Below, one piece after another: positions 3,292 through 43,759 of a stretch of 64,000 bases of DNA (positions are counted from its first letter, which is position 1; every line of letters begins with the position of its first letter). The notes beneath the pieces were generated by a model. That model saw nothing but the letters and a program-made list of their open reading frames with translations, was not told the origin of the DNA and searched no databases. Made by a program: the position numbers and the translations under genes. Origin of the DNA: a virus; IMG/VR virus record IMGVR_UViG_3300032213_001850, positions 1 through 64,000 of that record; one strand, written 5' to 3'.

Positions 3292-3370
3292 AATGGTACT
3301 ATCAATAGAAGGTATGTTCTAAAAATTTTCTTAAAAAACGACTTTCTCCCCCTACCCCCCTACCCCTTTA

Positions 3371-3400
3371 TTTGGTAATTTAAAAAAATTATTGTATATT
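3371..3400 (+). promoter_or_regulatory. Bacteroidota-type housekeeping-sigma promoter (TTTGG...TATATT)
   Basis: TTTGGTAAT at 3371 and TATATT at 3395; the same spacing recurs at several other sites. Confidence 0.65.
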
Positions 3401-3455: not shown

Positions 3456-4901
3456 ATGAAAGCAGTATTAATAGCTACGGATTACATTAAAACACCAACA
3501 AATGATTACAAGGTTTTAGAAATAAACACCCAAGCGGCAATTATTGCAGATATGGATGTTTTAGACTGGACAGGTCTTACTAACTTTATTCAAAGTAATT
3601 CTTTTACAAACGTACATTGTATATTACCAACATACGATAAAAGATTCTCAGTTAAATTAAATCAAATTTGTGATTCTATTGGTGGAATCCAATACCAATC
3701 ATACGAAACAGGTGATAGTTCTATTACCGTACCATATATTGAAGATAATGATAATACACTTATTATAAGACTTTCATATGATACTACTGCAGTTATTGAT
3801 GATGAATATGCAAAAGATATGTATAATTTTTTAAGAGCAATAGGAGGCCAGACTTTTAACGCAAAAACATACATACCAAATATTGTTGATGATTTTTCAA
3901 ATATTGATGATTTTTCATATACATCAAATACACCAAATTTTATTATAAAAAAGAGATATCCAAATTATGATAAAAATTTACATCCTAGATTATACAAAAT
4001 TCAAAATTTAGCAGAATTAAATGCATTAAAAACGGAAGTTGAAGTAGATACCGAATTTTTACAAGAGTTTGTAGACTCAGAAATTTTATCTGGTAAAAGA
4101 ACAATTGTTAGAGGTATTGATATTATATATGGTGCCGATTTAAATGTTATTTCAATGGGTGGTTATAAGGTATCAAGCTTTATTAGAGAAGATATTTGGG
4201 AAACCACTTTTAACGAAACAGGTAAACTATCTAGCAAAGACAGACCTAAATATATAACTTATTACACAAATCTAACAGAATTAAGTGCATATATATACGA
4301 TGCCGACCAACTGGTTTTAATGGCAGATGGTAGTAGAAAAGAATTTTCACAATTAGAGACAGGTGATAGTGTAAAATCAATTTCATTATCAACTTTACCT
4401 TTGGATGAAACCGAATATAAAGTATCCGAGTGGTCTGGTAGTCACACCGAATTTATTGCAAATTTTGAAGTAAGTGAAACAGCGGTAGTAGTAAAAACAA
4501 CAAAAACGCAAAACAATTTTTTCATTAAAATAACCTTAGATGGTACAATAGAGTGGGATGATTTACCTGGAACACAAATTCTTGTTAGAGAAGATGATAT
4601 TATTAGATTCAAACTGGTTAATGAATTGGAAATCGGTGATGTAATGGAATTATTTAGTACCGAAACTGAAACTGTTGTAAGTAAAACTGTAACTGATTTA
4701 GAAATTACATTTAAAGAAAATGCAGAAGTCGGTTCAATTGATGTAGAACCACTTGATTTATTTTTACCATTAGTTACCAATACATTTGCAATTATACAAC
4801 ACAATGCATGTAATACTAACTTTTGTAGACAATATGGTCAGGATTGTAATTGGTACTACAAATGTACCGACTGTTCAGGAGTGCAATGTCCAGCTAAATA
4901 A
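3456..4901 (+). CDS. Fusion of circularly permuted ATP-grasp ligase, Hint (intein-like) domain and Cys-rich C-terminal peptide
   Basis: N-terminal D-x11-EIN (TDYIK...KVLEINT), FIIKKRYP and FLQEF fit a permuted ATP-grasp; LVLMADGSRKEFSQLETGDSV is Hint block A; IDVEPLDLF...IIQHN is blocks F/G; then a 31-aa six-Cys tail. Confidence 0.7.
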   Translation: MKAVLIATDYIKTPTNDYKVLEINTQAAIIADMDVLDWTGLTNFIQSNSFTNVHCILPTYDKRFSVKLNQICDSIGGIQYQSYETGDSSITVPYIEDNDNTLIIRLSYDTTAVIDDEYAKDMYNFLRAIGGQTFNAKTYIPNIVDDFSNIDDFSYTSNTPNFIIKKRYPNYDKNLHPRLYKIQNLAELNALKTEVEVDTEFLQEFVDSEILSGKRTIVRGIDIIYGADLNVISMGGYKVSSFIREDIWETTFNETGKLSSKDRPKYITYYTNLTELSAYIYDADQLVLMADGSRKEFSQLETGDSVKSISLSTLPLDETEYKVSEWSGSHTEFIANFEVSETAVVVKTTKTQNNFFIKITLDGTIEWDDLPGTQILVREDDIIRFKLVNELEIGDVMELFSTETETVVSKTVTDLEITFKENAEVGSIDVEPLDLFLPLVTNTFAIIQHNACNTNFCRQYGQDCNWYYKCTDCSGVQCPAK

Positions 4902-4917
4902 ATAAAAACAAATAATT

Positions 4918-5031
4918 ATGGAAATTATAAAAAATGATATAGTAGAAATTACTATTGAAGAAAAAACCGAAATTGCCAATATATTTCAAAGTATTATATT
5001 GAGTATTAAAAATGATATATTAAATCAATAA
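4918..5031 (+). CDS. Small protein, 37 aa (MEIIKNDIVEITIEEKTEIANIFQSIILSIKNDILNQ)
   Basis: Read from sequence; A-rich leader; fills the gap between the Hint gene and the next promoter. Confidence 0.55.
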   Translation: MEIIKNDIVEITIEEKTEIANIFQSIILSIKNDILNQ

Positions 5032-5035
5032 TTAT

Positions 5036-5064
5036 TTTGTAAATCAAAATATTTTTAGTATATT
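5036..5064 (+). promoter_or_regulatory. Bacteroidota-type promoter for the tailoring-enzyme operon
   Basis: TTTG at 5036 and TATATT at 5059. Confidence 0.5.
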
Positions 5065-5070
5065 AGTGTT

Positions 5071-5349
5071 ATGGAAATTAATATTAAAGAAATAACAACC
5101 GCATGGTTTGATTCGTTTTGGGGTTCAAAAGAACAAAAACTCTTAGCACAAGATAGATTGGATATATGTCTTAAATGCCCATCAAAAAATGAGTTATTTA
5201 AAGATAAAGAATGGTCACTTTATTGTAAAGAATGTGGTTGTCCATTGAGTAAAAAAATATATTCAAATTTAAGAAATTCATGTCCATTGGGTAAATGGGA
5301 AGAAGCAGCAAAAAAACATGAAAGTGTTTTTATAAAAAAAATGTTATAG
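5071..5349 (+). CDS. Small Cys-rich metal-binding phage protein
   Basis: CLKC...CKECGC..K......CPLGKW pattern. Confidence 0.7.
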   Translation: MEINIKEITTAWFDSFWGSKEQKLLAQDRLDICLKCPSKNELFKDKEWSLYCKECGCPLSKKIYSNLRNSCPLGKWEEAAKKHESVFIKKML

Positions 5350-5351: not shown

Positions 5352-5873
5352 ATGATTGCATCCATAATAGAATCTGTATATGGATTTTTAAGTGAAGAGG
5401 ATTTAAATTTATTAGATAATTTATGTGTTAATTTTGATATTGACACTTCAATTAGTACAACACCTAAAAAGGGAAATTTCTATTATAGAATGTTTGTAGA
5501 CAACGAAACTCAATTTATTGATTATCAAACTACTATTAAAACTCACATACAAAAAAAATATAAAGTTGATGTTGAAATAGCTGCTATTTGGATAAATAAG
5601 GTTACTTCCGAAACAAATAAAAATGATAAATTTCATCATGATGAATGTGATTTTACGGTTGTATCATATATTAATGATAATTTTGAAGGAGGAGAATTTA
5701 CATTTCAAAAAAATCAAACTCCACCCACCGAAAAAATAAAACCAAAAAGAAATTTAAGTTTAATTACAAACGATAAATTACCACACAAAGTATTACCCGT
5801 AACATCTGGTGAAAGATATTCATTAATAGTTTTTTGTGATATACCCAAAAAAAACAAAAAAACAATGTTATGA
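5352..5873 (+). CDS. 2OG-Fe(II) oxygenase (prolyl-hydroxylase-like)
   Basis: HHD...FEGGEF...HKV.PVTSGERYSL. Confidence 0.85.
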   Translation: MIASIIESVYGFLSEEDLNLLDNLCVNFDIDTSISTTPKKGNFYYRMFVDNETQFIDYQTTIKTHIQKKYKVDVEIAAIWINKVTSETNKNDKFHHDECDFTVVSYINDNFEGGEFTFQKNQTPPTEKIKPKRNLSLITNDKLPHKVLPVTSGERYSLIVFCDIPKKNKKTML

Positions 5874-6496
5874 CGGAAATAAATTTAAATAATGAAGATA
5901 TAATTTATAAATCAAATTTAAAATTAGAACCTAGATTTGATAAACAAACATTTATAGAAAAATTAATAACTGTTGATAATTTAGTAAAAACTACTAATCA
6001 AAAATTTGGTGCCGGTGCACCGGGTAGACAATCAAGTTTGTCGAAAATGTATATACCTGAACTAATCTTTATAAAAGATAAAATTTGTGAACTATTATCT
6101 AAAACATTTAAAATTAGTAATAATTTCATAATTTATGATTGGTTATATTATAGTGATAAAGACAACGCTTATACTGGATATCATACTCATGATATATTAG
6201 CACCAATACAATCAAGTATTAACCACATTGATAACTTAAAAACAGATTATAGTTTCACTTATTATGTTCAAATGCCAAATAATTTAAAAGATAATCAAGG
6301 TAAATTATTTTTTAAAACAAAATCGGGTTATGAATTTTCAGTATTACCTGAAGAAGATGATATTTTTATTTTTCCAGGTGATTTACAACACAAACCAGAA
6401 ATTAATCCAAATTCTACTAAATCAAGAATAGTGGTCGCGGGTAATGTTGCGTTTTTTGATAATCATATTGCAAAAAGTAAAAAAACTTTTTTATAA
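5870..6496 (+). CDS. 2OG-Fe(II) oxygenase-like (HxH type)
   Basis: YHTH...FTYYVQMP...IFIFPGDLQHKP...RIVVAGN. Confidence 0.8.
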   Translation: MTEINLNNEDIIYKSNLKLEPRFDKQTFIEKLITVDNLVKTTNQKFGAGAPGRQSSLSKMYIPELIFIKDKICELLSKTFKISNNFIIYDWLYYSDKDNAYTGYHTHDILAPIQSSINHIDNLKTDYSFTYYVQMPNNLKDNQGKLFFKTKSGYEFSVLPEEDDIFIFPGDLQHKPEINPNSTKSRIVVAGNVAFFDNHIAKSKKTFL

Positions 6497-6510
6497 TTAA
6501 AATAAATAAA

Positions 6511-6876
6511 ATGAATGTTATAAATACAAACCCAAAACTATATCTTAAATATATTGATGATATAAAAGGATTTGGTGTTTTTACTAACCAAAAGATTAAG
6601 AAGGGGGAATTAATTGAAGAATGTTATTCTCTTTGTGTTGATAAATCGGTTAATGGATTTGACCCTTACAATTTTTATTATAGAGGAGATAGTAGATTAT
6701 TACCACTTGGATTTGGTATGATTTATAATCATAATAATAGTGCAAATATTGGCTGGAAAATTATTGATGAAAACAAGAAAATTATAAACTTTTTTGCACT
6801 TACTGATATTGATATAGATTATGAACTTTGCCATAATTACGGACCGTTATATTTAAAACATAGACCATTATTATGA
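6511..6876 (+). CDS. SET-domain protein lysine methyltransferase
   Basis: KGFGVF..QKIKKGELIEE, IYNHNNSAN, ELCHNYG. Confidence 0.85.
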   Translation: MNVINTNPKLYLKYIDDIKGFGVFTNQKIKKGELIEECYSLCVDKSVNGFDPYNFYYRGDSRLLPLGFGMIYNHNNSANIGWKIIDENKKIINFFALTDIDIDYELCHNYGPLYLKHRPLL

Positions 6877-7460
6877 TTTATCAAGAAAAAATATTTACAA
6901 AAGAAGAATGTGATAAAATTATATCTTATCAAAATGTATATTTAGATTTACTTTTTAGAGATAAAGAACCATCTATTGATTTAGAAAACAGAAGAATAGA
7001 TAATGTGGGCATGGTTATCAAAGGTAAAAAATTAGGTAAATTTTTTAATGTTTGGGATATTGTAAATAATAGTGAATCGGAATGGATGTTTGAAAAACTA
7101 TTTAATTGGTTTTCAAATGTTTCAAAAATTCAATTGAATCCAAATAATAAACCATATGGTTGTTCTTTGCATAAATACTCAAAAGGTGATTCTTTTACAA
7201 AACACATAGATTTGAATACTAATTTTCCAGATAGAAGATGGAATTTGGGAATACAATTAAATGAGGATTATACTGGTGGTGAATATATTTGTTATGATAA
7301 TAACAACAACGAAATAGTATTAAGTAAAGAAGTAGGTACTGCAGTAGCATATAATTCTACAACCTTACATGAAATAAAAGAAATACTTTCAGGAGAAAGA
7401 TGGTCAATTGTTGTACCTGTGTGGAAAAATTACTTATTAGAAAAAAATAATTTACTATGA
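6873..7460 (+). CDS. 2OG-Fe(II) oxygenase
   Basis: KHID...IQLNEDYTGGEY...LHEIKEILSGERWSIV. Confidence 0.85.
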   Translation: MIYQEKIFTKEECDKIISYQNVYLDLLFRDKEPSIDLENRRIDNVGMVIKGKKLGKFFNVWDIVNNSESEWMFEKLFNWFSNVSKIQLNPNNKPYGCSLHKYSKGDSFTKHIDLNTNFPDRRWNLGIQLNEDYTGGEYICYDNNNNEIVLSKEVGTAVAYNSTTLHEIKEILSGERWSIVVPVWKNYLLEKNNLL

Positions 7461-8017
7461 TTTATTATGAAAAAATATTTACATATGAAGAATGTAAAAC
7501 CATTATAGGGTATCATAAAACATATAAAGAATTAGAAGGATGGTTTCCAAAAGAAAATATTAAGGGACAAAGAACATCAGATAGGCGTAAATCATTTTCA
7601 TATGAAGTTTATGTCATTCCAAATAATAATGAAACTGAATGGTTTTTTGATAGATTGATAAAATGGTTTAGTAAAAATAATAATATAAAAATTAACGAAA
7701 ATAATAAAATACCATCATGTACATTACACCGATATACAAAAGGTGACCTTTTTAAAAAACATATAGATTTAACAAAAGAATTTCATGAACGTAGATATAA
7801 TTTAGGAATACAATTAAATGATGAATATTTTGGTGGAGAATATAAAGCATGGGATGATAATGATATTGAACATACTTTACCAAAAGAGCCAGGGACCGCA
7901 ATTTCGTATCATTGTAGAATATTACATGAAATAAAAGAAATTTTAGATGGTGAAAGATGGTCAATTGTTTTACCAATAGAAAAAGATTTTATTATTGAAC
8001 CAAAACATTTTTTATAA
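7457..8017 (+). CDS. 2OG-Fe(II) oxygenase, tandem paralog of 6873-7460
   Basis: KHID...IQLNDEYFGGEY...LHEIKEILDGERWSIV. Confidence 0.85.
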   Translation: MIYYEKIFTYEECKTIIGYHKTYKELEGWFPKENIKGQRTSDRRKSFSYEVYVIPNNNETEWFFDRLIKWFSKNNNIKINENNKIPSCTLHRYTKGDLFKKHIDLTKEFHERRYNLGIQLNDEYFGGEYKAWDDNDIEHTLPKEPGTAISYHCRILHEIKEILDGERWSIVLPIEKDFIIEPKHFL

Positions 8018-8715
8018 TGTCTTTATTAATTAATAATGAATTAATATGGGTATCTGTGCCTAAGTGTGCAAGTTTTTCAATTGAAGTGGCCTTATTAAAA
8101 TCTAATTTAGATATAATACAACATTCGAAAGCCAATAAAAATCAAAAACACCATACCCATATTGCTTTACACATATTAAAAGAAGAATTTGGTGATAAAA
8201 AAAGTATATGTATTAAAAGAGATTGGTTTGAAAGATGGTTAAGTTCTCTACAATATATTTTAGAAAACATAAAACTTAATAATAGTTTGAAACTAATTAA
8301 AGAATGGAAAGATGTTGATAATCAATTTATATATGATACATTTACCGATGAGTTTTCAAATGTATTTCATTCAGGAGAAACAAAATCAGAAAATATATGT
8401 TATGGTAAATTTTTAAAAAATAAAGAAGAAATAATTAAATTTGACAAAAAATCTTCTTTTCATATGCAGAAATTATCAACACTTTTTTCTCAAAATCACT
8501 GGAAAGAAAATAATAAATGTGATTATGAATTTGACATAAACGAAATAGATAAATTTGTAGATTTTATAGAGGAACGATTTGGAGAAAAATTAATAATTAA
8601 TAAACTAAACTCAAACCCAAAAGCAAAAAGTAAAATAATTATAAATGATGAGTTAAAATCGTTTATTTGGGATAAGTTTGAAAAAAGATATAATAAAAAA
8701 AATTATTTGTTATAA
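8017..8715 (+). CDS. Sulfotransferase-family protein
   Basis: 5'-PSB-like VPKCASFSI and 3'-PB-like RDWFERWLSS. Confidence 0.7.
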   Translation: MSLLINNELIWVSVPKCASFSIEVALLKSNLDIIQHSKANKNQKHHTHIALHILKEEFGDKKSICIKRDWFERWLSSLQYILENIKLNNSLKLIKEWKDVDNQFIYDTFTDEFSNVFHSGETKSENICYGKFLKNKEEIIKFDKKSSFHMQKLSTLFSQNHWKENNKCDYEFDINEIDKFVDFIEERFGEKLIINKLNSNPKAKSKIIINDELKSFIWDKFEKRYNKKNYLL

Positions 8716-9556
8716 TGCTCACCGAAAGGATAATTTAGTTAATATGAAAATTTTAAAATATTGGACGGCAGATGAGTTTGAAGTTGCATCTTATAAATGG
8801 AATTTATCAAAAAGAAAAAATAGTATATGGAAAGAATCGGGTAGTGATAAAACTCGTAAATGTACTTACACATATAACGAATTAGGTTTTAGAGGTGATA
8901 GTATTAAAAAAGATGGATTTAAAATCATGTCTTTGGGATGTTCTCATACTGAGGGTGTTGGTGTAAATGATGATGAATCTTGGCCGGCACAATTCACAAA
9001 ATTAATTCCGAATGGTGTTAATATGAACTTTGGAACAGGCGGAAGAAGTGGTGATTTTGTAGTAAGATGTTTAATGAGTTATTATGATTTGATTAAACCA
9101 GATTTAGTATTAATTTTATACCCACCTATCAATAGAAAAGAAATATATACTGCGGATGGTGGAATTGAACCATATATGGCAACATCTGCATGGGGATATA
9201 TGGAAGAAACCGAAGAGGGTAGACTTATCCAAAAAAATTTACTTGAAATTCAAAATACTAATCATGATTTTGTAAATTGGTATAAAAACCATCAATTGGT
9301 AAAATTATTTTTAGAATCCAAAAAATGTAATTTTATTTGGAATGGAAGTTTAACACAATCACCTTATAAAGATGAATTTAGATATGATGGAGATTTTTTT
9401 GTAAATATAATAGATAGAGGTGTTGATGGTAGACATTGCGGCCCAAAACATCTTAAAAATTATGCAACAAAGTTATATGACCATATTAATAATAATTTTC
9501 CTAATTTTTTATTAAATGATAAAACTCAATTAAATGTTAAAAAAGATTTAATATAA
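8678..9556 (+). CDS. SGNH/GDSL-like hydrolase or acyltransferase (start probably 8744)
   Basis: YNELGFRG, GCSHTEG, NFGTGG, DGRH. Confidence 0.7.
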   Translation: MKKDIIKKIICYNAHRKDNLVNMKILKYWTADEFEVASYKWNLSKRKNSIWKESGSDKTRKCTYTYNELGFRGDSIKKDGFKIMSLGCSHTEGVGVNDDESWPAQFTKLIPNGVNMNFGTGGRSGDFVVRCLMSYYDLIKPDLVLILYPPINRKEIYTADGGIEPYMATSAWGYMEETEEGRLIQKNLLEIQNTNHDFVNWYKNHQLVKLFLESKKCNFIWNGSLTQSPYKDEFRYDGDFFVNIIDRGVDGRHCGPKHLKNYATKLYDHINNNFPNFLLNDKTQLNVKKDLI

Positions 9557-10602
9557 TGAAAGAAGATATATTAAAACAATACATATGTACAACACCATTT
9601 GTTTATTTAGAAGTACATAAAGGTGGGGTACATAGTTGTTGTCCGTCCTGGTTACCAAATAAAATTTCTAGTTTAGAAGATATTGATAAAGCGTGGGGAA
9701 GTGAAGAATTAAAAAAAGTACAAGAATCAATTTTAGATGGTTCATACAAATATTGTTCAAAAACAGAATGTCCGTATTTATCGGAATTACTTATTACTGG
9801 TAGTAAACCAAAAGGATTTATTGATAAAACTAATTTTAATATTAATGATTATAAAAAAGGCCCTACTAATATAAATTTTGCATTTGATAGAAGTTGTAAT
9901 TTATCATGTCCATCTTGTAGAAATGTTGCAATTATGGCAGATGGAACGGAATTGGAATTTATTGATGATACGATAAATAAAATTGTTGATGTGTATGGAA
10001 AAAATATAAAGATGTTATACCTTTCAGGTTCAGCCGACCCATTTGCATCTAAATCTTTTAGGAAATTTTTATTAGAATTTGACAAAAACAAATTACCAAA
10101 TGTAAATCATATTCATCTACATACCAACGCATTATTATTAACTGAAAAAATGTGGAATAGTTTAGGTCACATACATGATTTAATAAAAACCATTGAAATT
10201 AGTATTGATGCTGCAAATGAAGAAACTTATAAAATTGTTAGAAGAGGTGGCGATTGGCAAACATTGTTAAATAATTTAGATTTTATATCAACAATAAAAC
10301 TTCGTAACAAAAATGTTTCTTTTGTTGTACAAGATACGAATTATTTAGAAATGGAAGATTTTTATATATTGATGAATAAAATTTTTAAAAATAATATAAA
10401 TGTATTTTTTAATAAAATAACAAATTGGGGAACATACACATCATCAGAATATGCTATTAAACAAATATGGAATGAATCACATCCAGAATTTCAAATGTTT
10501 TTACATCAGCTTGATAAAATTAATAAAAAATATAAGTGTACCCACAATATGCATGATATAATTGATAAATATTTACCTAAAAAAATAAATGGTTTAATAT
10601 AA
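9556..10602 (+). CDS. Radical SAM enzyme with N-terminal SPASM/twitch-like Cys cluster
   Basis: CNLSCPSC; SGSADPF; HTNALL; ISIDAA; N-terminal C..PF...CCPSW...C....CP. Confidence 0.85.
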   Translation: MKEDILKQYICTTPFVYLEVHKGGVHSCCPSWLPNKISSLEDIDKAWGSEELKKVQESILDGSYKYCSKTECPYLSELLITGSKPKGFIDKTNFNINDYKKGPTNINFAFDRSCNLSCPSCRNVAIMADGTELEFIDDTINKIVDVYGKNIKMLYLSGSADPFASKSFRKFLLEFDKNKLPNVNHIHLHTNALLLTEKMWNSLGHIHDLIKTIEISIDAANEETYKIVRRGGDWQTLLNNLDFISTIKLRNKNVSFVVQDTNYLEMEDFYILMNKIFKNNINVFFNKITNWGTYTSSEYAIKQIWNESHPEFQMFLHQLDKINKKYKCTHNMHDIIDKYLPKKINGLI

Positions 10603-10648
10603 AATATATCTTAATAAACAAAAAGACCATATTAAAAAAATAATTTAA

Positions 10649-11227
10649 ATGAGAATTGCAATAATTGCTCATCATAGAAGTGGTAGTAATAGTATAAGTC
10701 AATGGTTATCAATGGAATTAGGTTATAAATGGATAACCGAACCATATAATATGGATGATGAATATTGGAACCATGACAAAGAAGAAAGACATCAAAATAG
10801 TTTAATAAATAATAATATAGTTGTAAAATATATTTATGGTCAATTTACTGATTCAAAACAAATAATTGAAATTATTAAATCATTTGATAAATTAATAATA
10901 TTAACTAGAGATAATGTTAGAGAATGTGCAATTAGTTCACTTTACACTAAAGTAACAAATAAATATCATGATAAATATGTATTGAATATCGATTGGTTAA
11001 ACAAAAATGAAAACCAAATAGAAGAAGAAATGTATAATATTAATATAACAAATAATAAATTAAAAAATATAAAAGAAGGATTACAAATAACTTACGAAGG
11101 TATTTTTGAAACTAAAGAAGACATTGCCAAATTAAAAGACTATTTAAAATTAAGTGAATTAAGATATGATAATTTTATAGATAAAAAAAATAAATATACA
11201 AATACTAAAAGGGAAAAATTATTATAA
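10649..11227 (+). CDS. P-loop sulfotransferase-like protein
   Basis: AHHRSGSNSI, EPYN, ILTRD..ECAIS, ITYE. Confidence 0.65.
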   Translation: MRIAIIAHHRSGSNSISQWLSMELGYKWITEPYNMDDEYWNHDKEERHQNSLINNNIVVKYIYGQFTDSKQIIEIIKSFDKLIILTRDNVRECAISSLYTKVTNKYHDKYVLNIDWLNKNENQIEEEMYNINITNNKLKNIKEGLQITYEGIFETKEDIAKLKDYLKLSELRYDNFIDKKNKYTNTKREKLL

Positions 11228-29856: not shown

Positions 29857-32800
29857 GTGCAGAATATAAATCCAGACGCTTTCGAAAATATTCAAATAAA
29901 TAATGAATCAGGCCGTGCCGAAATTATTGGTGGAGGTGGTGGTGGAGGTTCATCGACATCAAATACAACGGGCACATTTAATCTATATTTAAATTGTGCT
30001 GATATTGCGGAATACTTTGATGGAAACAATACATTGGGAGTTGGTACATCTCAATATATATCATATGCACCTGTAACAACATTTGGTTCGTCTAGAACAT
30101 ATACATCAAAAATAGATAATAAAGTTGCAAAAAATTACTTTGTAGTATTTTTGAACAATGAATCCAAAGGATACAACCAACAAACCGGTGAACCAACTTA
30201 TTATGAATCAATAAGAGCATCGGAATATAGATTAAAACCCGGAAGTCAAACCGAATATGAGTTTTATGAATATAAAAATTTACCAGGAGTAGATGGTACT
30301 ATGGAGTTACAATTTTTATTCGAACCGAAAAAAGTTGCAGATGACCCTATTATAACTCCTGCTACTAAAAATTACGATTTTAAATTAAATTTAAATTCAA
30401 ATTTTTCAAATGAATTAGAAAATTCTTTTTCATTAAAATATGAAATTGTTAAGTTAAATCAAGTTATATTAACTGGTAATTTAACACCAACGGTAGATAG
30501 TACAGATTTATTATCTTTGAGTGAAGAAATATTAAATTCTTCAAATGTTGTTTTTAGTGTTGTAGGAGACCTTCCGAAAAATTTTACTTTTGAAAATATA
30601 AAAATAAAAAAAGGAGCGGTTATAAGTTTTTCTCCCGATATTGCATCATCAACTGACCGAATATTAACAATACCTGCATCCAATTTAAAAAGTGGAAATG
30701 TAGATATTGATGTTACATTTGCAAAAAACATTCCACAACCAGTTGTTAGTACAATTGATACACAATACAATGACCAGGTTAAAGATAGTGATTCCGATAA
30801 AGTAATTGAAATACCTTTTACAACATCGAATGCAAATAGTATAAACGTAACATTTCCAAATGGTAGTGTAAGAAATATAACAACTACATCGTTTAGCGTA
30901 TCATTTAAAAACGATTTAGGTGGAAGTTTTGATTTACAAAAATTAATACTAACTCCTGTTTTTGATAATATTTTAGGAGCATCTAAAGAAGTATTTGTTA
31001 AATTTGTAAGAATTAACAATACTCCCGATATTGTAAGTGTTTCATACCCTGCATCCATTGATATTCCGGCGTTTTCGGACTACAATATTGAATATGAGGT
31101 AAAATATGAAGCATCGAATACAACTCATGTAAAAGTTGAATTATTACAAAAAGATAATACAAAAATTGTTTATTTAGATAAATTGACACCGATTGGTTCT
31201 TTTAAGGTAAATATTAAAGCTTTAAAACAAAAATTTGTAAATTGGGAAGGAAATATATCTTTTATATTTACATCAATTAATAATGCTGGTGATGTTACAT
31301 TGAGTAGTAATACCTATTCATATACAACAAATGTTATATATCCAACAATACAAATGGATGAAGATTTAATTAATACATCTTTATTCAATGCATTTAAGAA
31401 TCAAATTAAAATTCCAGATTTAGATAAAGATAGTAAATATTTAACACATCTTACTAATTTTGGAGATGATAATCAATTTTTGGTTTCAAGTTGGGAAAAT
31501 GATGATTGGACATTATCAAAAAAATCCACAGATGAATTAGGTAATGAATTTGTTAGGCCAGAAGATAAGGTTGAAAGTTTAATATTAAAATTATACAAAC
31601 CACTTTCGGCAAATATTACAAATAATTCAACATTATGGATTACCAAATTATTAACGAATCCATTAATTGAAACTATTGTTTTAAATCAACAAGATGATTT
31701 AAAATGTCCACCTTTAAAAGGCCCTAATTTTAATGTTGAGGTGGATTTTGTAACAGGAAAATCAACCGGATACGAATCGTTGGATGATTTAATATTGAGC
31801 GGTTCTACTTCATCTGCACAATTGGTAAATAAATATCTAAGTGGTTCCGTTATTGACACAGAATATTTAAATATAGAATATACAAGTGGTTCGGAATATC
31901 TTTGGGAAAACTTTGTTCATTTTAGTTCTGCAACTGAGAGAGTGGATAATTTTGTATATAAAGTTAAATTAATTGAATTATATGAACAATTAATAATAAG
32001 TGCATCCACAAACTATACAGGAGGTTCGTCTGGGTCGTATACTGGTTCAATTTCATCATTACAAGAAGTTGATAGACAGAATACAAAGAAAAATCAAATT
32101 ATCCAATCATTTGATGGGTTTGAAACATTTTTATACAACGAATCATCTTCATCTTTAAATTGGCCATATACGAATGGTAATAGAGATTTAAGTGTATCGA
32201 ATAATGTTTCCAATTGGTATGAAAATATAATAACATTGGCAGAAGATTTTGATATTGAAAATAGAAACTGGATTAATAATAATATTCCACAATATATTGT
32301 AAATAATGAAGATAATGCAAGTTTGTTATTATTCTTTTCAATGATTGGCCAACACTTTGATAACATATATTTTCATACGAAGGCAATTGAAAAAAGTAGA
32401 GGTTTGGGATACAAACAAACAGGAAATATTTCTGATAAACTATTATTTGATATTTTAAAATCTTTTAATTGGGATGCTAAAAATTTAGCTGCAGATAATC
32501 AACTTTGGAGTTTAGTATTTGGTGTTGATAAAGCTGGAGATGAAGTAAATTCAAACCCTGCAAAACAAAGAAATTTTGAAGTTTGGAGAAGAATTGTAAA
32601 CAACTTACCTTACTTATTAAAACATAAAGGTACAAGACAAGGTATTTATGCATTATTGGCTTGTTATGGTATTCCATCATCAAACCTTTCAGTTTTAGAA
32701 TTTGGCGGGCCGGAAGTGACCGAAGAACAAAAAGGTAAATTGGTAATGGATAATATTACTAATGCTCTTAAATTTAATAGTGGTGCTAAAATAGAAGTAG

Positions 32801-34827
32801 AATGGAAAAATACTGATAAAGGTAGAAGGCCAAATACAATTGAATTATTTATAAAACCAGATTCAGCACAAAGCTCTTCTATCATATCTGGAACTAATTG
32901 GGATGTTGTAGTGAGTGGTTCTACTAATAGTGAATATGGTAAAGTATTTTTTAATTATAGTGGTTCTACTAATATATCAACATCATTATTACCAATATTT
33001 AATGGTAGATTTTTTGGTATATCAGTAAGTAGTGGTTCAACTGGGTTAAAATTAGATGTAAGACAATCGGAAAAAGAAAGAACTATATTTGAAGAATCGA
33101 TTACGGGTTCTTCATTAACTAATTGGAATAATGGCTCTACATTAAATATTGGTGGTACATATGTTGGTAGTGTAGATGAATTCCGTTTATGGAGTGAACA
33201 ATTAAATACCGATGTATTTTATCAACACGTTTCATTCCCTGAAATGGTTAATGGTAATTCTTACACAGCATCAACTGATGATTTGTATTTCCGTTTAGAT
33301 TTCGAATATCCTAAAAACTTAGCTCAAACATCTTCTTTAATAAATGTAGATACAAACATATATTTTAGTAGTAGTGTTAGTAGAAATCATTTAGAAGGTG
33401 GAAATGTATCAATTATATCTGGCTCAACTATATTATCTGAAAATACAAACGCATTATATTCAGCTAGTGCTAGTGGGTTTAGTTCAAGTGTAACGTATCC
33501 ATTCCAATTTGAACCAATAGATAGAACAATTGTAATGTCTTATCCAGATGGTGGTGCAAGTAGATTTCAAACATCAAAAATTAGATTTGAAGAACAAACT
33601 TTAATTTCCGATTTATCTTCAAAAAGTAGAGCAACTAAAAAATCATTTGACCAATCTCCAACGGATTCTAATAGAGTTGGTTTATTTTTCTCTCCTACAA
33701 AGGAATTAAATATTGATATTGCAAAGTCATTGGGTGGATTAAATTTGGACAATTATATTGGTGACCCATCGGATGAATATAAATCAAATTATGTTAGATT
33801 AGATGAATTAAGACAATATTATTTCCAAAGATTTGATAATAGAGACATATATGCATATATCAACTTAATCAAATTATATGAGAAGTCTATGTTTGATGAT
33901 ATTAAAAAAATGTTACCGGCAAGGGTTAAAGCTACAACCGGTTTATTAATCGAACCTCACTTTTTAGAAAGAAGTAAAATTGCAAGAAAAAGACCAGTTG
34001 GTGAAGATTATCAATTAAATACCGAAATAAAATATAGTGATACAACATTAACAACGGCTGAAAATAATCAATATGAAAGTATACTTGATGCAAATTTAAG
34101 TGAAAATTTAATTGGAGAAAATAATCAATATGAATCACTAATTTCAACAACCGATACACAAAGAACAATTGCAGAAAATTATCAATATACGGCATCTTAT
34201 GTATATTTTGATGATACATCGTTAACGGCTGAAAATTTGCAATATGAAGTAAGTATAGATGCCAAATTGGAGCAACCTACTATTACAACGGAAATTGATT
34301 TAGGAGTAGAAACTTATGGTGAAACCGCGTATGAGACTATTGGATTTGGTATTTATGCACAAAATGGTAATACAATTAGAACTTATTTAGACAAAGATAA
34401 TAGAAGAGTAAAAGAAAGAATTAGAGTTCAATTGATTACAGAGGAAAAAGAAAGAATGATAACTAAATTTGCAGTGACCGCATCTGCAACTGGATTTGGA
34501 GACCCACGTGGAGGATATGTTTCTGCTATTGAAACATATAATCAAACTTATTTAAACATCCAACCATTTAGTGGTTCCACAATTCCTACAGTTCAAAATA
34601 ATATAGTTGCAGTAGTACCTGTGGACGGATATTTACCGACACATTATAGAAATACATCGGATTTAACAAGAGGATTGGAAAATTCATATTATAGAGGGTC
34701 AAAAAATACTGCAGCAACTACTTTGGATGGTTCATCACCAATTGAAACATTTGTATCTAATCCAAATACATTAACGGTAAATAGAACAGGCAGAAATACA
34801 TCAGAACCAATTTTGGAAGTAGAATAA
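29857..34827 (+). CDS. Large baseplate/tail structural protein (gp7-like) with LamG-like domain
   Basis: MIGQHFDNI, LLKHKGTRQGIYALLACYGI (baseplate wedge/tail-I-like), GSVDEFRLW (LamG-like), MLPARV. Confidence 0.7.
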   Translation: MQNINPDAFENIQINNESGRAEIIGGGGGGGSSTSNTTGTFNLYLNCADIAEYFDGNNTLGVGTSQYISYAPVTTFGSSRTYTSKIDNKVAKNYFVVFLNNESKGYNQQTGEPTYYESIRASEYRLKPGSQTEYEFYEYKNLPGVDGTMELQFLFEPKKVADDPIITPATKNYDFKLNLNSNFSNELENSFSLKYEIVKLNQVILTGNLTPTVDSTDLLSLSEEILNSSNVVFSVVGDLPKNFTFENIKIKKGAVISFSPDIASSTDRILTIPASNLKSGNVDIDVTFAKNIPQPVVSTIDTQYNDQVKDSDSDKVIEIPFTTSNANSINVTFPNGSVRNITTTSFSVSFKNDLGGSFDLQKLILTPVFDNILGASKEVFVKFVRINNTPDIVSVSYPASIDIPAFSDYNIEYEVKYEASNTTHVKVELLQKDNTKIVYLDKLTPIGSFKVNIKALKQKFVNWEGNISFIFTSINNAGDVTLSSNTYSYTTNVIYPTIQMDEDLINTSLFNAFKNQIKIPDLDKDSKYLTHLTNFGDDNQFLVSSWENDDWTLSKKSTDELGNEFVRPEDKVESLILKLYKPLSANITNNSTLWITKLLTNPLIETIVLNQQDDLKCPPLKGPNFNVEVDFVTGKSTGYESLDDLILSGSTSSAQLVNKYLSGSVIDTEYLNIEYTSGSEYLWENFVHFSSATERVDNFVYKVKLIELYEQLIISASTNYTGGSSGSYTGSISSLQEVDRQNTKKNQIIQSFDGFETFLYNESSSSLNWPYTNGNRDLSVSNNVSNWYENIITLAEDFDIENRNWINNNIPQYIVNNEDNASLLLFFSMIGQHFDNIYFHTKAIEKSRGLGYKQTGNISDKLLFDILKSFNWDAKNLAADNQLWSLVFGVDKAGDEVNSNPAKQRNFEVWRRIVNNLPYLLKHKGTRQGIYALLACYGIPSSNLSVLEFGGPEVTEEQKGKLVMDNITNALKFNSGAKIEVEWKNTDKGRRPNTIELFIKPDSAQSSSIISGTNWDVVVSGSTNSEYGKVFFNYSGSTNISTSLLPIFNGRFFGISVSSGSTGLKLDVRQSEKERTIFEESITGSSLTNWNNGSTLNIGGTYVGSVDEFRLWSEQLNTDVFYQHVSFPEMVNGNSYTASTDDLYFRLDFEYPKNLAQTSSLINVDTNIYFSSSVSRNHLEGGNVSIISGSTILSENTNALYSASASGFSSSVTYPFQFEPIDRTIVMSYPDGGASRFQTSKIRFEEQTLISDLSSKSRATKKSFDQSPTDSNRVGLFFSPTKELNIDIAKSLGGLNLDNYIGDPSDEYKSNYVRLDELRQYYFQRFDNRDIYAYINLIKLYEKSMFDDIKKMLPARVKATTGLLIEPHFLERSKIARKRPVGEDYQLNTEIKYSDTTLTTAENNQYESILDANLSENLIGENNQYESLISTTDTQRTIAENYQYTASYVYFDDTSLTAENLQYEVSIDAKLEQPTITTEIDLGVETYGETAYETIGFGIYAQNGNTIRTYLDKDNRRVKERIRVQLITEEKERMITKFAVTASATGFGDPRGGYVSAIETYNQTYLNIQPFSGSTIPTVQNNIVAVVPVDGYLPTHYRNTSDLTRGLENSYYRGSKNTAATTLDGSSPIETFVSNPNTLTVNRTGRNTSEPILEVE
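34000..34284 (+). repeat. Five in-frame 19-aa repeats (A/G)ENxQY within the large structural protein
   Basis: GEDYQL / AENNQY / GENNQY / AENYQY / AENLQY at an exact 19-residue period. Confidence 0.7.
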
Positions 34828-34875
34828 CTAAATTTAAAAAATAATTATATTTATAAACAAAGATAATATTAAACT

Positions 34876-35499
34876 ATGGGATATTTAAGTAACACAGAAC
34901 TAACCGTTGACGCCATTCTTACCAAAAAAGGTAGAGAAAAATTAGCAGCAGGTCAAGGTTTAAACATTACTCAATTTGCATTAGCGGATGATGAGATTGA
35001 TTACACATTATACGAACCGGCTCACCCATTAGGTTCATCTTATTATGATGCATCTATTAAAAATATGCCTGTATTAGAAGCTAATCCAGATGAAACTCAA
35101 GTAATGAAGTATAAGTTGGTAACTTTACCTAAAAATACAACTAGAATTCCAGTTGTTGAATTTGGTGTTCCTAACATTGCAGTTAATCAAAGAAGTGGTG
35201 AGGTATCACTATCTCCAACTACATCTCCTGCAGGTAATAGAACAATGGGATATACGATTATTCTTTCTAATAAAAATGCGGGTGATATTGTAGGTGAAGG
35301 TGTGACATCAGATGCTGGAACAACTCCGGTATTCATTGGTGATAATGCATCTGCAACGGCAGCAATCGCTAAAGGATTATCTTTCAAATTTATTCCAAAC
35401 CCATCATTGACTTCGACTATCAAAACAACAATAACTGTTTATGGTAACGAAACTGGTGGTTCACAAACTATTCCAATCACAGTAACTTACGTTCAATAA
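34876..35499 (+). CDS. Virion structural protein
   Basis: DAILTKKGREKLA, FALADDEIDY; follows ATATTTAT at 34847. Confidence 0.7.
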   Translation: MGYLSNTELTVDAILTKKGREKLAAGQGLNITQFALADDEIDYTLYEPAHPLGSSYYDASIKNMPVLEANPDETQVMKYKLVTLPKNTTRIPVVEFGVPNIAVNQRSGEVSLSPTTSPAGNRTMGYTIILSNKNAGDIVGEGVTSDAGTTPVFIGDNASATAAIAKGLSFKFIPNPSLTSTIKTTITVYGNETGGSQTIPITVTYVQ

Positions 35500-35508
35500 T
35501 AAAATACT

Positions 35509-36762
35509 ATGGCATTAATACGAGACAATAGAGGAGCCCTTTTAGCAAGTAATTTATCAAATTATTTAGCAGGTGCGTCAAACACAACGGGAACACCTGT
35601 CGATACGACACAATTGATAAGTATCATTAACCAATTTTTAGGAGCAGGTGAACAAATATCTGCCGATGTAACTACCATTACAAATGGTATTTATAAAAAG
35701 TTTGGTTCAATCGATAAAGTAGTAAATAGAACACAAATTGTAACTTCTGGAATATGGAGTGGTGATACTGGTTCATTGGACGCCAAAGCAACTTATACAT
35801 CATCTACTCAGGCTGCATCTACAAGTGGTAGATACTATTTAGATGTATATAATGGATTACCATCATCAGGTACTTCGGAGGTTCAATTCTCAATTGCATA
35901 TGGTGATGCCAACGGATTTGGTGCACCAACTATAACACAAAATGACGATTCAACCTTACCAACCAAAGCAACTTATAATCAATTCAAAAATATATTATTA
36001 GACCCTGCAGATAATTACTTTAGTGTTTATACAGGTTCAGTTGCAGGTGGCCATGATATGAAAAATTTCTATGTATTAAATGTTAATAGAGCAAGATACA
36101 AAGAAAGACTAGACCCAGGAAATATTTCAATAGATTTATCTGGTTCAGTTAGAAGTATTACTTTAATTGATGATAGTGGTGGTAGTGATGAAAATGTAAC
36201 AACTGCGGGTAGAGTTTACAACTTAGTTAGTGGTTCATTAAATATCGGTTCGGCATTAACTGCTTCAATCGCTATAACCGGTGGATATAGTGCAGCACAA
36301 AATGGACAAGGATATGGTTTATTTTATCCAGATATGGGTATTATATTATTAAATCCATTAGCATTAGCAGCTGCATGTGACCCAAATTTAGCACCTGCAA
36401 CAAATTCAATACAATCAGTTTATCATCAAAATAATGGTAATAAGTCAGGTTCAGTTGCATTATTGATGGCCATTAGTGGTGGTGCAGACTTACAAATAAG
36501 AAGAACTGAAAATATTTCAACTTCTCATTACTTTGTAAGAGCAAATAATAGAGAATTTAATTTCTCAAATAACCCAACATTTACAACAGGTTCAGTTGGT
36601 GCATTTGTTAACCCATTATTTGAAAGAGACCCACATGTATACATTACATCGGTAGGTTTATATGATGATGCAAATGAATTATTAGCAGTTGCAAAAACTT
36701 CTCAACCAATTGAAAAATCTTTTGATAAAGAGATAGCAATTAAAGTTAAATTAGATTTCTAA
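35509..36762 (+). CDS. Virion structural protein (tail collar/baseplate-like C-terminus)
   Basis: YITSVGLYDDANELLAVAK...KVKLDF. Confidence 0.7.
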   Translation: MALIRDNRGALLASNLSNYLAGASNTTGTPVDTTQLISIINQFLGAGEQISADVTTITNGIYKKFGSIDKVVNRTQIVTSGIWSGDTGSLDAKATYTSSTQAASTSGRYYLDVYNGLPSSGTSEVQFSIAYGDANGFGAPTITQNDDSTLPTKATYNQFKNILLDPADNYFSVYTGSVAGGHDMKNFYVLNVNRARYKERLDPGNISIDLSGSVRSITLIDDSGGSDENVTTAGRVYNLVSGSLNIGSALTASIAITGGYSAAQNGQGYGLFYPDMGIILLNPLALAAACDPNLAPATNSIQSVYHQNNGNKSGSVALLMAISGGADLQIRRTENISTSHYFVRANNREFNFSNNPTFTTGSVGAFVNPLFERDPHVYITSVGLYDDANELLAVAKTSQPIEKSFDKEIAIKVKLDF

Positions 36763-36785
36763 TCGGAGAATAAAATAAAAACTAT

Positions 36786-36811
36786 AACCCACCTTAATTT
36801 GGTGGGTTTTT
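36786..36811 (+). terminator. Rho-independent terminator
   Basis: aacccacc-ttaattt-ggtgggtt followed by a T-run. Confidence 0.8.
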
Positions 36812-36835
36812 AGTTTTAGAATATTTATATACGAT

Positions 36836-38029
36836 ATGTTAAAAAGAATACCAAAGTCAGATATTAGTATTAGGCCGTTTAAGGCATACAAAGAATGGAG
36901 TTTCAATAACTTTGATTCTGGTTCAATTACTATGTTAGATGCAAATGAAGCTTCAACGGATTTAAATTTAATTACAACGGGTAGCTTAACAGGTTCTACA
37001 TATCCTAAAAATTCATTATTCGGTCAATTAAGAGCTCAATTTTACAATGATTTAGGAGATAATCCATTTTTAAGAACCGGAGAAAAAACAAATTATTATT
37101 CAAATAAACCAAAAGCTCAAGAAAGATTTTTAAGTGGTTCGGCAAAAGTAATATCAATTCCAAACATTTATGTAGGTGAGGGGATTAAAAAGGGTTCTTT
37201 AATATTGATAGATAATGGAACAACTTATTTTGATGATACATATGGTAATTTAGTTGGTGATGTTCCTGATAGAATTTATTTTGGAAAAATAGATGTGGAA
37301 AACCAAACAATTAATTTTACCGATATTGCAGATAATGCATATAGTGGAACAATTGATTCTTATTTTTTAGATATTGAAAACAATGAATTTACAATGTCGT
37401 ATTCAGGAACAGAATATGATATGGTAATAGTGTCTTTTGATATAGAATCTGGATTAATGTTGGTTGATGATATACCATTTTTAGAACCAGAAGCACAGAT
37501 AATTAGATTTGGTAATGTTTTTTATAATCAAGGATTAATAGTAATGACACGTGAATTTGATTCTTTATTAAATTCAAATTGGGATTTATCATTTAAATCA
37601 ACTAAAACAATTTATGAACACGAATATTTGTTAATAGCCGAACAAGATGAGTTCAATGTATCACAAAACCCATCTGCAATTATTAATGTAGGTAGACAAT
37701 CACAGAGATATATAACATCGGATGGTAAATCTATGAGTATTATTACAAATCCAGGAGTAAATTATATCAAAAAGAAAACTATACTAGAAAATGGAAATAT
37801 ATTAGATTATAGATTTACATCATCTTACAATGAAACGACATTGGCTGGGTTTGAACATTATTTTGAAAGTGGTTCTGCAGATACTACCGGTTCTTTTTTA
37901 ACACCATTTATTACAACAATAGGATTATATGATGACGATTGTAATTTGGTTGCAGTAGCAAAATTACCACAACCAATAAAATCGGAACATGATTTGACTG
38001 TAAACTTTATTGTACGATTTGACACATAA
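36836..38029 (+). CDS. Virion structural protein, paralog of 35509-36762
   Basis: GNVFYNQGLIV, EFNVSQNPS, FITTIGLYDDDCNLVAVAKL...VRFD. Confidence 0.7.
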   Translation: MLKRIPKSDISIRPFKAYKEWSFNNFDSGSITMLDANEASTDLNLITTGSLTGSTYPKNSLFGQLRAQFYNDLGDNPFLRTGEKTNYYSNKPKAQERFLSGSAKVISIPNIYVGEGIKKGSLILIDNGTTYFDDTYGNLVGDVPDRIYFGKIDVENQTINFTDIADNAYSGTIDSYFLDIENNEFTMSYSGTEYDMVIVSFDIESGLMLVDDIPFLEPEAQIIRFGNVFYNQGLIVMTREFDSLLNSNWDLSFKSTKTIYEHEYLLIAEQDEFNVSQNPSAIINVGRQSQRYITSDGKSMSIITNPGVNYIKKKTILENGNILDYRFTSSYNETTLAGFEHYFESGSADTTGSFLTPFITTIGLYDDDCNLVAVAKLPQPIKSEHDLTVNFIVRFDT

Positions 38030-38060
38030 TCTTATATTTATATTTAAAAAAACAAACACA

Positions 38061-38306
38061 ATGGCAAGTATTATAGAAATGTATAATGAGGATAAAAAAT
38101 TACAAGTAGCTACGACATCCGATAAAACACCATACTATTCAGAAGGAACCGATGGTAAAACTGCAAATTTAGTAGATGAAAAATCTATATCCGAATTGGA
38201 GAAAAAATTATCTACCAAAAGATATGGTGCTGGTGTGGGAGATTGGGGTGCAGTATATAGTGATGCAACGGGGAAAAATTATAGCAAAGTAGTAAAAAAG
38301 GATTAA
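38061..38306 (+). CDS. Hypothetical protein
   Basis: Start at 38061 after ATATTTAT (38034) and A-rich leader. Confidence 0.6.
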   Translation: MASIIEMYNEDKKLQVATTSDKTPYYSEGTDGKTANLVDEKSISELEKKLSTKRYGAGVGDWGAVYSDATGKNYSKVVKKD

Positions 38307-38314
38307 TTAATTTA

Positions 38315-38740
38315 ATGGCTAAAAAAGTTACAAAAAAGAACAATTCAAAATGGGTTGCTAAAAAGTATGGATTTAAGTCTGGTTTAGAAGAAACCATATC
38401 ATCCCAAATTGAAAGTAGAGGTATAGTCGTAGAATATGAAACGGAAAAGGTTGCATATATCATACCGGCATCAGAACACAACTATCATCCAGATTTTAAA
38501 TTACCGAATGGTATAAGAGTTGAGACCAAAGGTAGATTTGTTGCCGCAGACCGTAAGAAACACCAATTGGTAAAAGAACAAAATCCCAATTTGGACATTC
38601 GTTTCGTATTTTCCAATTCAAAGAACAAAATCAGCAAAAACTCTAAAACTACATACGGAATGTGGTGTGAAAAGAACGGATTTAAGTATTCGGACAAATT
38701 CATCCCAGAAGAGTGGTTTTTAGAGGAAAATAGACCGTAA
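38315..38740 (+). CDS. Endonuclease I-like Holliday junction resolvase (T7 gp3 family)
   Basis: FKSGLEE, YHPDF.LPNGIRVETKGRF..DRKKH, PNLDIRFVF, TTYGMWCEK.GF. Confidence 0.9.
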   Translation: MAKKVTKKNNSKWVAKKYGFKSGLEETISSQIESRGIVVEYETEKVAYIIPASEHNYHPDFKLPNGIRVETKGRFVAADRKKHQLVKEQNPNLDIRFVFSNSKNKISKNSKTTYGMWCEKNGFKYSDKFIPEEWFLEENRP

Positions 38741-38744
38741 ATTA

Positions 38745-38774
38745 TTTGGTAATATCAAATATTTGTCGTATATT
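38745..38774 (+). promoter_or_regulatory. Bacteroidota-type promoter for replication/recombination genes
   Basis: TTTGGTAAT at 38745, TATATT at 38769. Confidence 0.7.
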
Positions 38775-38780
38775 TAGGGG

Positions 38781-43482: not shown

Positions 43483-43648
43483 GAACTACCTTATCAGCCT
43501 TCAACACACTAGATTGTGGTTTTGAGACACCGATGTGTTTCTTAATTAGATTTTCAACTAGGCTACCCATTTTAAACCCGTGTTCTTCACAATACCCTTT
43601 GAGAAGTTCATGGGTTTCTTTTTTGATTTGTAACATTGCGTATTTCAT
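43463..43648 (-). CDS. Small DNA-binding protein (ribbon-helix-helix-like)
   Basis: YAMLQIKKETHELLKGYCEEHGFKMGSLVENLIKKHI fits strand-helix-helix; preceded on the - strand by ATATTTAT (43710-43717). Confidence 0.65.
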   Translation of the reverse strand: MKYAMLQIKKETHELLKGYCEEHGFKMGSLVENLIKKHIGVSKPQSSVLKADKVVLRNQSY

Positions 43649-43655
43649 AACTTAT

Positions 43656-43705
43656 TTAGTTTTCTTTAGTTTTCTATAATACATTAAAGTATTTATTAGT
43701 TTTCT
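43656..43705. repeat. Three direct copies of TTAGTTTTCT, putative operator
   Basis: Copies at 43656, 43666 and 43696, upstream of the RHH-like gene. Confidence 0.7.
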
Positions 43706-43738
43706 TTATATAAATATGTGATAATAATTTTTTTGAAG

Positions 43739-43746
43739 ATATTTAT
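43739..43746 (+). promoter_or_regulatory. ATATTTAT putative late promoter
   Basis: Divergent partner of the - strand copy at 43710-43717. Confidence 0.55.
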
Positions 43747-43759
43747 TTAAAAAGATTAA

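Follow-up and report, generated by a model that had tools for sequence, protein, structure and literature searches.

A viral fusion of an ATP-grasp ligase, a Hint domain and a cysteine-rich tail: a candidate self-releasing peptide precursor in a conserved cluster of tailoring enzymes

Results

The 64,000-nt window analysed here covers positions 1 to 64,000 of an 81-kb virus record (IMG/VR record IMGVR_UViG_3300032213_001850) from an uncultured phage of freshwater type, which is estimated to be 43% complete. It carries T4-like baseplate wedge genes and SbcCD-like genes, and, judged by the gp6-like protein, its closest relatives in culture are Microcystis phage Mel-JY01 and Flavobacterium phage immuto (39–42% identity). 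At 3456..4901 a single open frame on the + strand, the strand of all genes of the window given below, encodes a fusion protein of 481 aa. The fusion joins an ATP-grasp ligase domain, a Hint domain and a short cysteine-rich tail, and is referred to as AGH (ATP-grasp–Hint–Cys-tail). AGH is a candidate self-releasing precursor whose Hint domain would free the tail as a peptide, and its gene lies in a conserved cluster of tailoring enzymes.

The AGH family is large and virus-only. A 90%-clustered protein collection contains 323 homologues at E ≤ 0.01, nearly all of them full length and all labelled 'hypothetical protein', and clustering at 50% leaves 264 cluster representatives at E ≤ 1e-3. The sharing of the three-part architecture across both sets is beyond chance. 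Neighbours of the fusion in the ESM Atlas are 96–100% viral, and 185,579 bacterial and archaeal species genomes yield a single match, on a 5-kb contig of an archaeal metagenome-assembled genome (MAG). This contig (JABJFP010000318.1; L083) is phage-like and, by its look, probably mis-binned. Another family member (L004) lies on contig GVMAG-M-3300007547-5, which is binned as a giant-virus MAG but is phage-like and apparently in the wrong bin. Searches of 50,697 deposited phage genomes by tblastn with two different family members found no homologue, PHROGs and NCBIfam searches with the fusion gave nothing relevant, and Pfam returned only a Hint match below threshold (PF01079, E 0.086, aa 279–310). 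The initial annotation knew of no described phage system with this architecture; our literature and library searches (ATP-grasp, Hint and phage; the enzyme cluster) agree, in that they turned up no description of the fusion and no name for the family. Contigs about 89% identical to the gene span nearly the whole frame in two metatranscriptome libraries from two studies, one of them with 1404 nt over 3465–4867. They provide a weak hint of expression only, because DNA can occur in such libraries. Most DNA runs contained the sampled words in small shares only, and no habitat is named from them.

The first 273 residues (3456..4274) form a circularly permuted ATP-grasp amide-ligase domain of the clade that includes glutathionylspermidine synthetase (GspS), YgiC and glutathione synthetase. 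An AlphaFold2 model of the fusion, built from 137 relatives, reaches a mean predicted local distance difference test score (pLDDT) of 92, and was compared with known structures by Foldseek and VIA-align (VIA). By VIA, residues 1–273 align with E. coli YgiC in complex with ADP (7uka, chain 94–378) at Z 10.5 (197 residues aligned, root-mean-square deviation 3.6), with the synthetase domain of E. coli GspS (2io7, chain 311–610) at Z 9.9, with eukaryotic glutathione synthetases at Z about 9 and with fungal Cp1B at Z 8.6; Foldseek matches the domain to YjfC at E 8e-6. With the classical enzymes LysX/ArgX, RimK, Ddl and TTLL, which are unpermuted, the alignment is confined to aa 48–276, which identifies the N-terminal strand pair with D9 and E22-x-N24 as the permuted piece. 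As in GspS, YgiC and YjfC, glutathione synthetase and Cp1B, the D...ExN metal site precedes the rest of the domain. Residue conservation, computed on 137 diverse relatives (20–82% identity), is 97–100% at D9, E22, N24, T25, R105, D115, K165 (in the motif FIIKK) and R219. The fold and the structural scores bear out the GspS-type assignment made in the initial annotation from the N-terminal position of the D...ExN motif.

The ligase of AGH differs from these enzymes in its size and in its partners. At about 270 aa it is without the first ~93 residues of YgiC, it is joined to a Hint domain and a peptide, and it has no sequence-level match to the solved structures: PDB searches by sequence and by profile with the fusion gave no ATP-grasp match. 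An hhalign comparison of the family with YgiC is weak (46 columns, E 0.019) and places D9, K19, E22 and N24 on D102, K112, E115 and N117. By this weak alignment, the conserved ligase residues may correspond one to one to the published GspS residues. The domain looks like a working enzyme. YgiC and YjfC are peptidyl-polyamine synthetases (PMC12568646), and this group joins amides at a carboxylate, often the C-terminus of a peptide (PMC12568646). From its clade, the reaction predicted for AGH is the formation of an amide bond at the carboxylate of a peptide.

The middle part of the protein (aa 277–450; 4284..4805) has the Hint fold, as initially proposed. Over aa 277–452, VIA gives Z 16.6 with the NpuDnaB intein, 16.2 with Tetrahymena BIL2 and 16.1 with hedgehog (1at0); the C. 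thermocellum BIL domain aligns with the Hint domain at Z 16.1. Foldseek matches to the Hint domain reach E ~1e-8. Some relatives carry complete Hint domains further downstream, and the active-site columns of the first Hint were assigned, and counted, by hhalign to these (probability 98.8%, E 6e-17). The Pfam PT-HINT family (PF07591) gives no match to the first Hint.

Most of the residues that make inteins work are gone from this domain. Intein position 1 is I280 and offers no Cys, Ser or Thr nucleophile; across the family this position is His, Gly, Ile or Lys, preceded by Tyr, Pro, Leu or Phe. The block-B TxxH motif is absent, with L370 in place of its threonine and T373 in place of its histidine, where the family consensus is serine. 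The block-F histidine is replaced by a conserved Asp434. Only three residues of the domain reach 80% conservation: G364 and the terminal pair H449 (96%) and N450 (99%) at 4800..4805, which precede the predicted scissile bond N450/A451. The initial annotation had already noted the loss of the nucleophile and of TxxH and the retention of His-Asn, and the family-wide columns extend that pattern to its relatives. The residue at +1, Ala451, is Ala, Gly, Leu, Pro, Val, Gln, Thr, Arg, Lys or others in relatives, with no fixed Cys, Ser or Thr.

The loss of the first cysteine and the block-B histidine throughout the family rules out both splicing and N-terminal cleavage. That the terminal His-Asn is retained at 96–99% while the other active-site residues decayed argues for cleavage after Asn450. 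Asparagine cyclisation without an N-terminal nucleophile is established for engineered inteins, and we infer from the conserved sequence that AGH is cut after Asn450 in this way. Such a cut would give fragments with computed masses of 51.1 kDa and, in the reduced form, 3571 Da.

The domain shares the Hint fold, the non-splicing state and the terminal His-Asn with BIL domains, PT-HINT (PF07591) and BIL2 of the BUBL locus (PDB 6tmm/6y75), and as in BIL and PT-HINT proteins it precedes a variable C-terminal module. It departs from BIL and PT-HINT in that the first Hint is without Cys1 and the block-B histidine, so that only C-terminal cleavage is possible, and in that it is viral and has an ATP-grasp ligase in place of a secretion or toxin scaffold. 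No trafficking domain was found on the fusion, unlike in PT-HINT toxins.

The tail (aa 451–481; 4806..4898), delimited by translation and by homologue comparison, consists of 31 residues with six cysteines (C452, C457, C464, C470, C473 and C478) and ends in a lysine carboxylate. The six cysteines and the alanine at +1 are as first annotated. In the AlphaFold2 model this part is poorly defined (pLDDT 39–53). Among the homologues, the first Hint is followed by a Cys-rich peptide of at most 70 aa alone in 165 and by a longer Cys-rich tail in 13. In 16 homologues the Cys-rich peptide is followed by a complete Hint (with Cys1, TxxH and HN), a layout that mirrors the Tetrahymena BUBL locus, and in five a self-cleaving chaperone domain of the Peptidase_S74 type comes after a Cys-rich segment, while a sixth has S74 without the Cys-rich segment. 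One to three complete Hints stand straight after the first, with linkers of 0–6 aa, in 21 distant homologues; the tail has just 5–7 aa in three, and five carry other domains. Tails of relatives hold 4–16 cysteines in 21 to ~140 aa, and the cargo overall ranges from 5 to 540 aa. The tail varies too much in length, cysteine number and additional Hint or S74 domains to be an invariant zinc finger. None of the outcomes that the initial annotation named as refuting its reading was observed. Without excision, it would be difficult to account for a peptide that lies between two self-processing modules, the second being a Hint or S74.

All of these architectures have a lysine at or near the C-terminus. 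A cut by S74 would leave ...K-COOH, the same end as in the plain tails, and the Hint arrays also end in HN|K. Arrays of two or three complete domains with this ending occur in P0220, P0262, P0234, P0241, P0246, P0248 and P0259. The S74 variants, with the motif SDxRLKxNI, are represented by L014 (gene from 8001) and by P0126, P0133, P0148, P0156, P0167 and P0186. Because trimeric fibres are the usual setting of S74 domains, the Cys-rich segment may be trimeric in those phages.

The tail changes faster than the remainder of the protein. Identity at non-cysteine positions is 0.61 in the tail against 0.83–0.87 elsewhere within the clade of the fusion, and 0.20 against 0.51–0.55 in a more distant clade. 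The ratio of nonsynonymous to synonymous substitution rates (dN/dS), from 25 disjoint gene pairs, is 0.149 for the ligase, 0.137 for the Hint domain, 0.192 for the whole tail and 0.33 for the tail without its conserved cysteines; at nonsynonymous sites the tail evolves about three times as fast as the rest. Positive selection on the tail was looked for and not found (dN/dS 0.33, with dS partly saturated). The tail is under relaxed purifying selection and not diversifying selection. The hypervariability that the initial annotation proposed to look for in it stands as a higher rate than in the ligase and Hint (0.33 against 0.14–0.15), and falls as far as diversification is concerned. The cysteine framework is constant within clades and differs between them.

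These properties bear on an explanation in which AGH is an uncleaved enzyme: the protein would work as a single chain, its ATP-grasp domain would modify a different substrate, for example a tail fibre, a small molecule or what the small downstream gene s40 (below) encodes, the Hint would be a rigid spacer or an interaction domain, and the tail would be a zinc knuckle that docks partners. The purifying selection on a tail with six cysteines invariant in its clade agrees with this, as do the loss of most of the Hint active site, the occurrence of fibre-like genes downstream in many loci and the existence of cyanophage tailoring clusters without AGH. The same explanation leaves the best-conserved residues of the Hint, N450 and H449, with no known role, since none besides Asn cyclisation is on record for them, and it sits badly with tails that differ wildly between clades or shrink to 5–7 aa, and with relatives in which the peptide is followed by another self-cleaving module. 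We regard an uncleaved enzyme as unlikely, and the release of the tail as a peptide is the reading against which the neighbouring genes are considered below.

At least 232 IMG/VR loci include a relative of the fusion. Eighty of these were analysed and their ORFs clustered, and gene presence was counted over 81 loci. In the window, a block of tailoring enzymes that share a C-terminal tag extends over 5352..11227, as identified by Pfam, synteny and the tag statistics given below. It comprises 2-oxoglutarate (2OG)-Fe(II) oxygenases at 5352–5873, 6873–7460 and 7457–8017, an oxygenase-like protein at 5870–6496, a SET domain protein at 6511–6876, sulfotransferase-like proteins at 8017–8715 and 10649–11227, an SGNH-like protein at 8678–9556 and a radical S-adenosylmethionine (SAM) enzyme at 9556–10602, each assigned by Pfam and synteny. 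The 2OG oxygenases are present in 79 of the 81 loci and the oxygenase-like family in 68; the sulfotransferase-like families ST232 and ST192 are found in 72 and 66, the SGNH/DUF6071 family in 50 and the radical SAM enzyme in 21. Methyltransferases also belong to the tagged set. A tryptophan halogenase (PF04820, E 4e-89) occurs in 44 of the 81 loci, for example at 3965–5206 of L061. The locus thus has a feature typical of ribosomally synthesized and post-translationally modified peptides (RiPPs), a ribosomal precursor beside tailoring enzymes, and this synteny is conserved in 80 viral loci, which makes the link to tailoring enzymes stronger than was claimed initially.

Two further observations concern the halogenase. 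Members of the large halogenase-bearing clade have tails with a CWCPW...YCG motif and 2–4 tryptophans. A link between halogenase and tail tryptophan (Trp present in 43 of 44 halogenase loci) was examined and is not taken as independent evidence: tails rich in tryptophan are also seen with no halogenase within 8 kb, and the pattern tracks one or two clades.

An APS (adenosine 5'-phosphosulfate) kinase is found in 22 of the 81 loci. Upstream of the module, 22–27 loci (among L015–L081) carry this kinase (PF01583, E 5e-19) and a 125-aa protein that has an HxGH motif. This suggests a phage-encoded supply of 3'-phosphoadenosine 5'-phosphosulfate (PAPS) for the sulfotransferase-like enzymes.

Between AGH and the oxygenases lies c92 (5071..5349), a 92-aa cysteine protein that ends in the tag and is supported by synteny and by an AlphaFold2 model with pLDDT 82. 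It is present in 71 of the 81 loci, mostly adjoining AGH, and has ten invariant residues: C33, C36, C52, C55, C57, C71, W12, R29, K62 and W76. The best structural match to its model has Z 3.3, so that no solved fold was matched.

The order of genes varies by clade. The initial annotation placed the fusion at the head of the cluster; this is correct for the stretch's own clade, and in most other clades the fusion lies mid-cluster. A metatranscriptome contig of a relative (run X20) joins 5018–5348 to 3369–3400, with c92 directly before the upstream region of the fusion, an order that matches the c92-upstream variant of other loci. The late promoter proposed in the initial annotation found no support: sigma-70-like hits at the locus are at chance level (17 found against 18 ± 4.4 expected in shuffles), and the T4-type late box TATAAATA occurs at chance frequency, with none on the + strand upstream of the fusion.

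The enzymes of the cluster share a C-terminal tag, [KR]-x(1-4)-[LIMFV][LIMFV]-COOH, typically KKTLI or KKSLL (K..[LI][LI]). Across the 80 loci, 15 unrelated enzyme families end in the hydrophobic pair of the tag in 87–100% of their members; they include the oxygenases, both sulfotransferase-like families, the halogenase, the radical SAM enzyme, SET, SGNH and c92. The same ending is found in 2% of the fusion proteins, 0% of fibre-like proteins, 10% of APS kinases and 19.5% of all other ORFs. The overlap of neighbouring genes at ATGA was tried as a source of the tag and rejected: 134 of 137 tagged proteins keep it where a gap of over 15 nt separates them from the following gene, and only 39 of 190 proteins of untagged families that overlap the next gene end like the tag. 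The enzymes of the cyanophage Syn9 have neither the tag nor a fusion nearby. In that the Syn9 cluster is without both, the tag goes with the module that contains the fusion.

The tag admits another explanation, in which the ligase would recognise the shared tag, activate the C-terminal carboxylate of the tagged enzymes and join it to the freed alpha-amine or the C-terminal lysine of the fusion. Such a protein-ligation hub would agree with the closest structural relatives of the ligase, which act on C-terminal carboxylates of peptides (PMC12568646), and with AGH as the constant untagged partner of 15 unrelated tagged families. The absence of the tag from the AGH-less Syn9 cluster points the same way, as does the terminal or near-terminal lysine that every architecture keeps, Hint arrays with their HN|K end included. 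The BIL2 of BUBL shows that a Hint can drive an ATP-independent isopeptide conjugation to lysine (PMC8616854). This evidence is purely circumstantial, and the joining of a whole enzyme set to a peptide has no precedent. Another protein could just as well read the tag as a signal for docking, sorting or degradation, and each molecule of the fusion could be used only once. We consider the ligation of tagged enzymes to AGH a long shot, and keep to release of the tail as a substrate for these enzymes.

Directly downstream of AGH is s40 (4918..5031), which encodes a helical protein of 37 aa without cysteines, conserved at the protein level. Genes of this size escape the usual length cut-offs for ORFs. 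Its relatives have 37–50 aa, end in ...IKxKHLS and begin 1–36 nt past the AGH stop codon in 64 of the 81 loci; s40 co-diverges with the whole AGH gene and not with the type of tail. Alignment of s40 with YgiC by hhalign gave no alignment.

A small gene in this position invites comparison with polymorphic toxins, where the ligase–Hint part would be a constant platform whose Hint frees a variable effector or toxin cargo (a Cys knot or other domains), s40 would be an antidote or chaperone, and the neighbouring enzymes would be unrelated. In its order, with the Hint followed by a C-terminal module that varies, AGH conforms to the logic of PT-HINT, the cargo has the wide range of lengths given above, and the best fold matches are to BIL and PT-HINT structures. 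Opposed to this are the lack of a secretion or trafficking domain and the presence at the N-terminus of an enzyme with an intact-looking active site. The s40 protein is conserved rather than polymorphic and follows the whole gene instead of the tail, the tail shows no diversifying selection, and the linkage to the tagged enzymes is too constant to be incidental. Toxin-like release appears quite unlikely to us compared with release of a peptide for maturation.

Discussion

The reading that we favour, and to which we give an even chance, is that AGH is a self-releasing precursor and the hub of a conserved, virus-only peptide-maturation module. Asn450 would cyclise and cut the bond N450/A451, freeing a six-Cys peptide of 3.57 kDa with a free alpha-amine and a lysine carboxylate end. 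The ligase–Hint part of about 450 aa would be a built-in leader, the leader peptidase and one tailoring enzyme at once, and the tail would be the core peptide. The tagged neighbours, probably docked via their tags, would decorate the tail by hydroxylation, sulfation, methylation or, in relatives, halogenation, and the ligase would form one amide bond at a peptide carboxylate. Candidate partners in that bond are the Lys-COOH of the tail, the s40 product, a tagged C-terminus and a polyamine.

Several observations weigh against this interpretation. Asp434 stands in place of the block-F histidine, which in many inteins assists Asn cyclisation, and the +1 residue is variable, with a cysteine at +2. 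The 21 distant relatives with Hint arrays only, joined by linkers of 0–6 aa, have no peptide. Purifying selection on a tail with six cysteines invariant in the clade fits an attached metal-binding tail as well. Relatives whose second Hint would form a thioester keep the ATP-grasp domain, so the ligase is not merely an activator of the peptide C-terminus. Tails rich in tryptophan also occur without a halogenase within 8 kb. Dioxygenase and halogenase clusters without AGH exist in cyanophages (PMC2938197), and the enzymes could act, for instance, on fibres.

The same parts may be arranged differently, as a single-use conjugation hub. The Hint would free the peptide, and the ligase would weld its Lys-COOH, or the C-terminus of a tag, to an amine; recognition would be reversed relative to RiPPs. 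We hold this to be very unlikely. If true, it would represent a virus-encoded tagging system in which the docking peptide sits on the enzymes and its receptor on the precursor.

Each part of the module has known relatives: GspS and YgiC ligases, BIL and PT-HINT domains, phage dioxygenase clusters and borosin-like fusions. It is the combination, together with the tagged enzyme set, that none of the searched papers and libraries describes. Borosin precursors such as OphMA consist of a methyltransferase fused to its own core peptide, and need a separate protease. AGH resembles them in that a single chain combines a tailoring enzyme with a candidate core peptide at its C-terminus, and differs in that its Hint would release the peptide, and in the class of the enzyme and the kind of peptide.

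The closest parallel for the enzymes is the tandem dioxygenase/tryptophan-halogenase cluster of Syn9 (L084), gp40–gp62 at 32454–46304 of its record, just after the tail-fibre assembly genes; it likewise is an array of distinct 2OG dioxygenases and tryptophan halogenases next to fibre genes. It was described in 2010 as unprecedented and was predicted to modify peptides, the substrate being unknown (PMC2938197). Syn9 has no AGH homologue and no tag, whereas the cluster described here itself encodes a Cys-rich ribosomal peptide.

A natural Hint that only cleaves, coupled to a peptide ligase, could be useful in protein engineering. The family is abundant in aquatic viromes, as seen from the at least 232 IMG/VR loci and the 264 clusters at 50% identity. 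That about 15 unrelated enzyme families bear one and the same tag suggests an undescribed mechanism of docking or sorting in these viruses. If the Hint domain does release the tail, AGH would be, to our knowledge, the first known ribosomal precursor that carries both its own leader peptidase and its own ligase. It would also provide the first candidate substrate for the oxygenase, halogenase and sulfotransferase clusters of phages, the target of which has been open since 2010 (PMC2938197).

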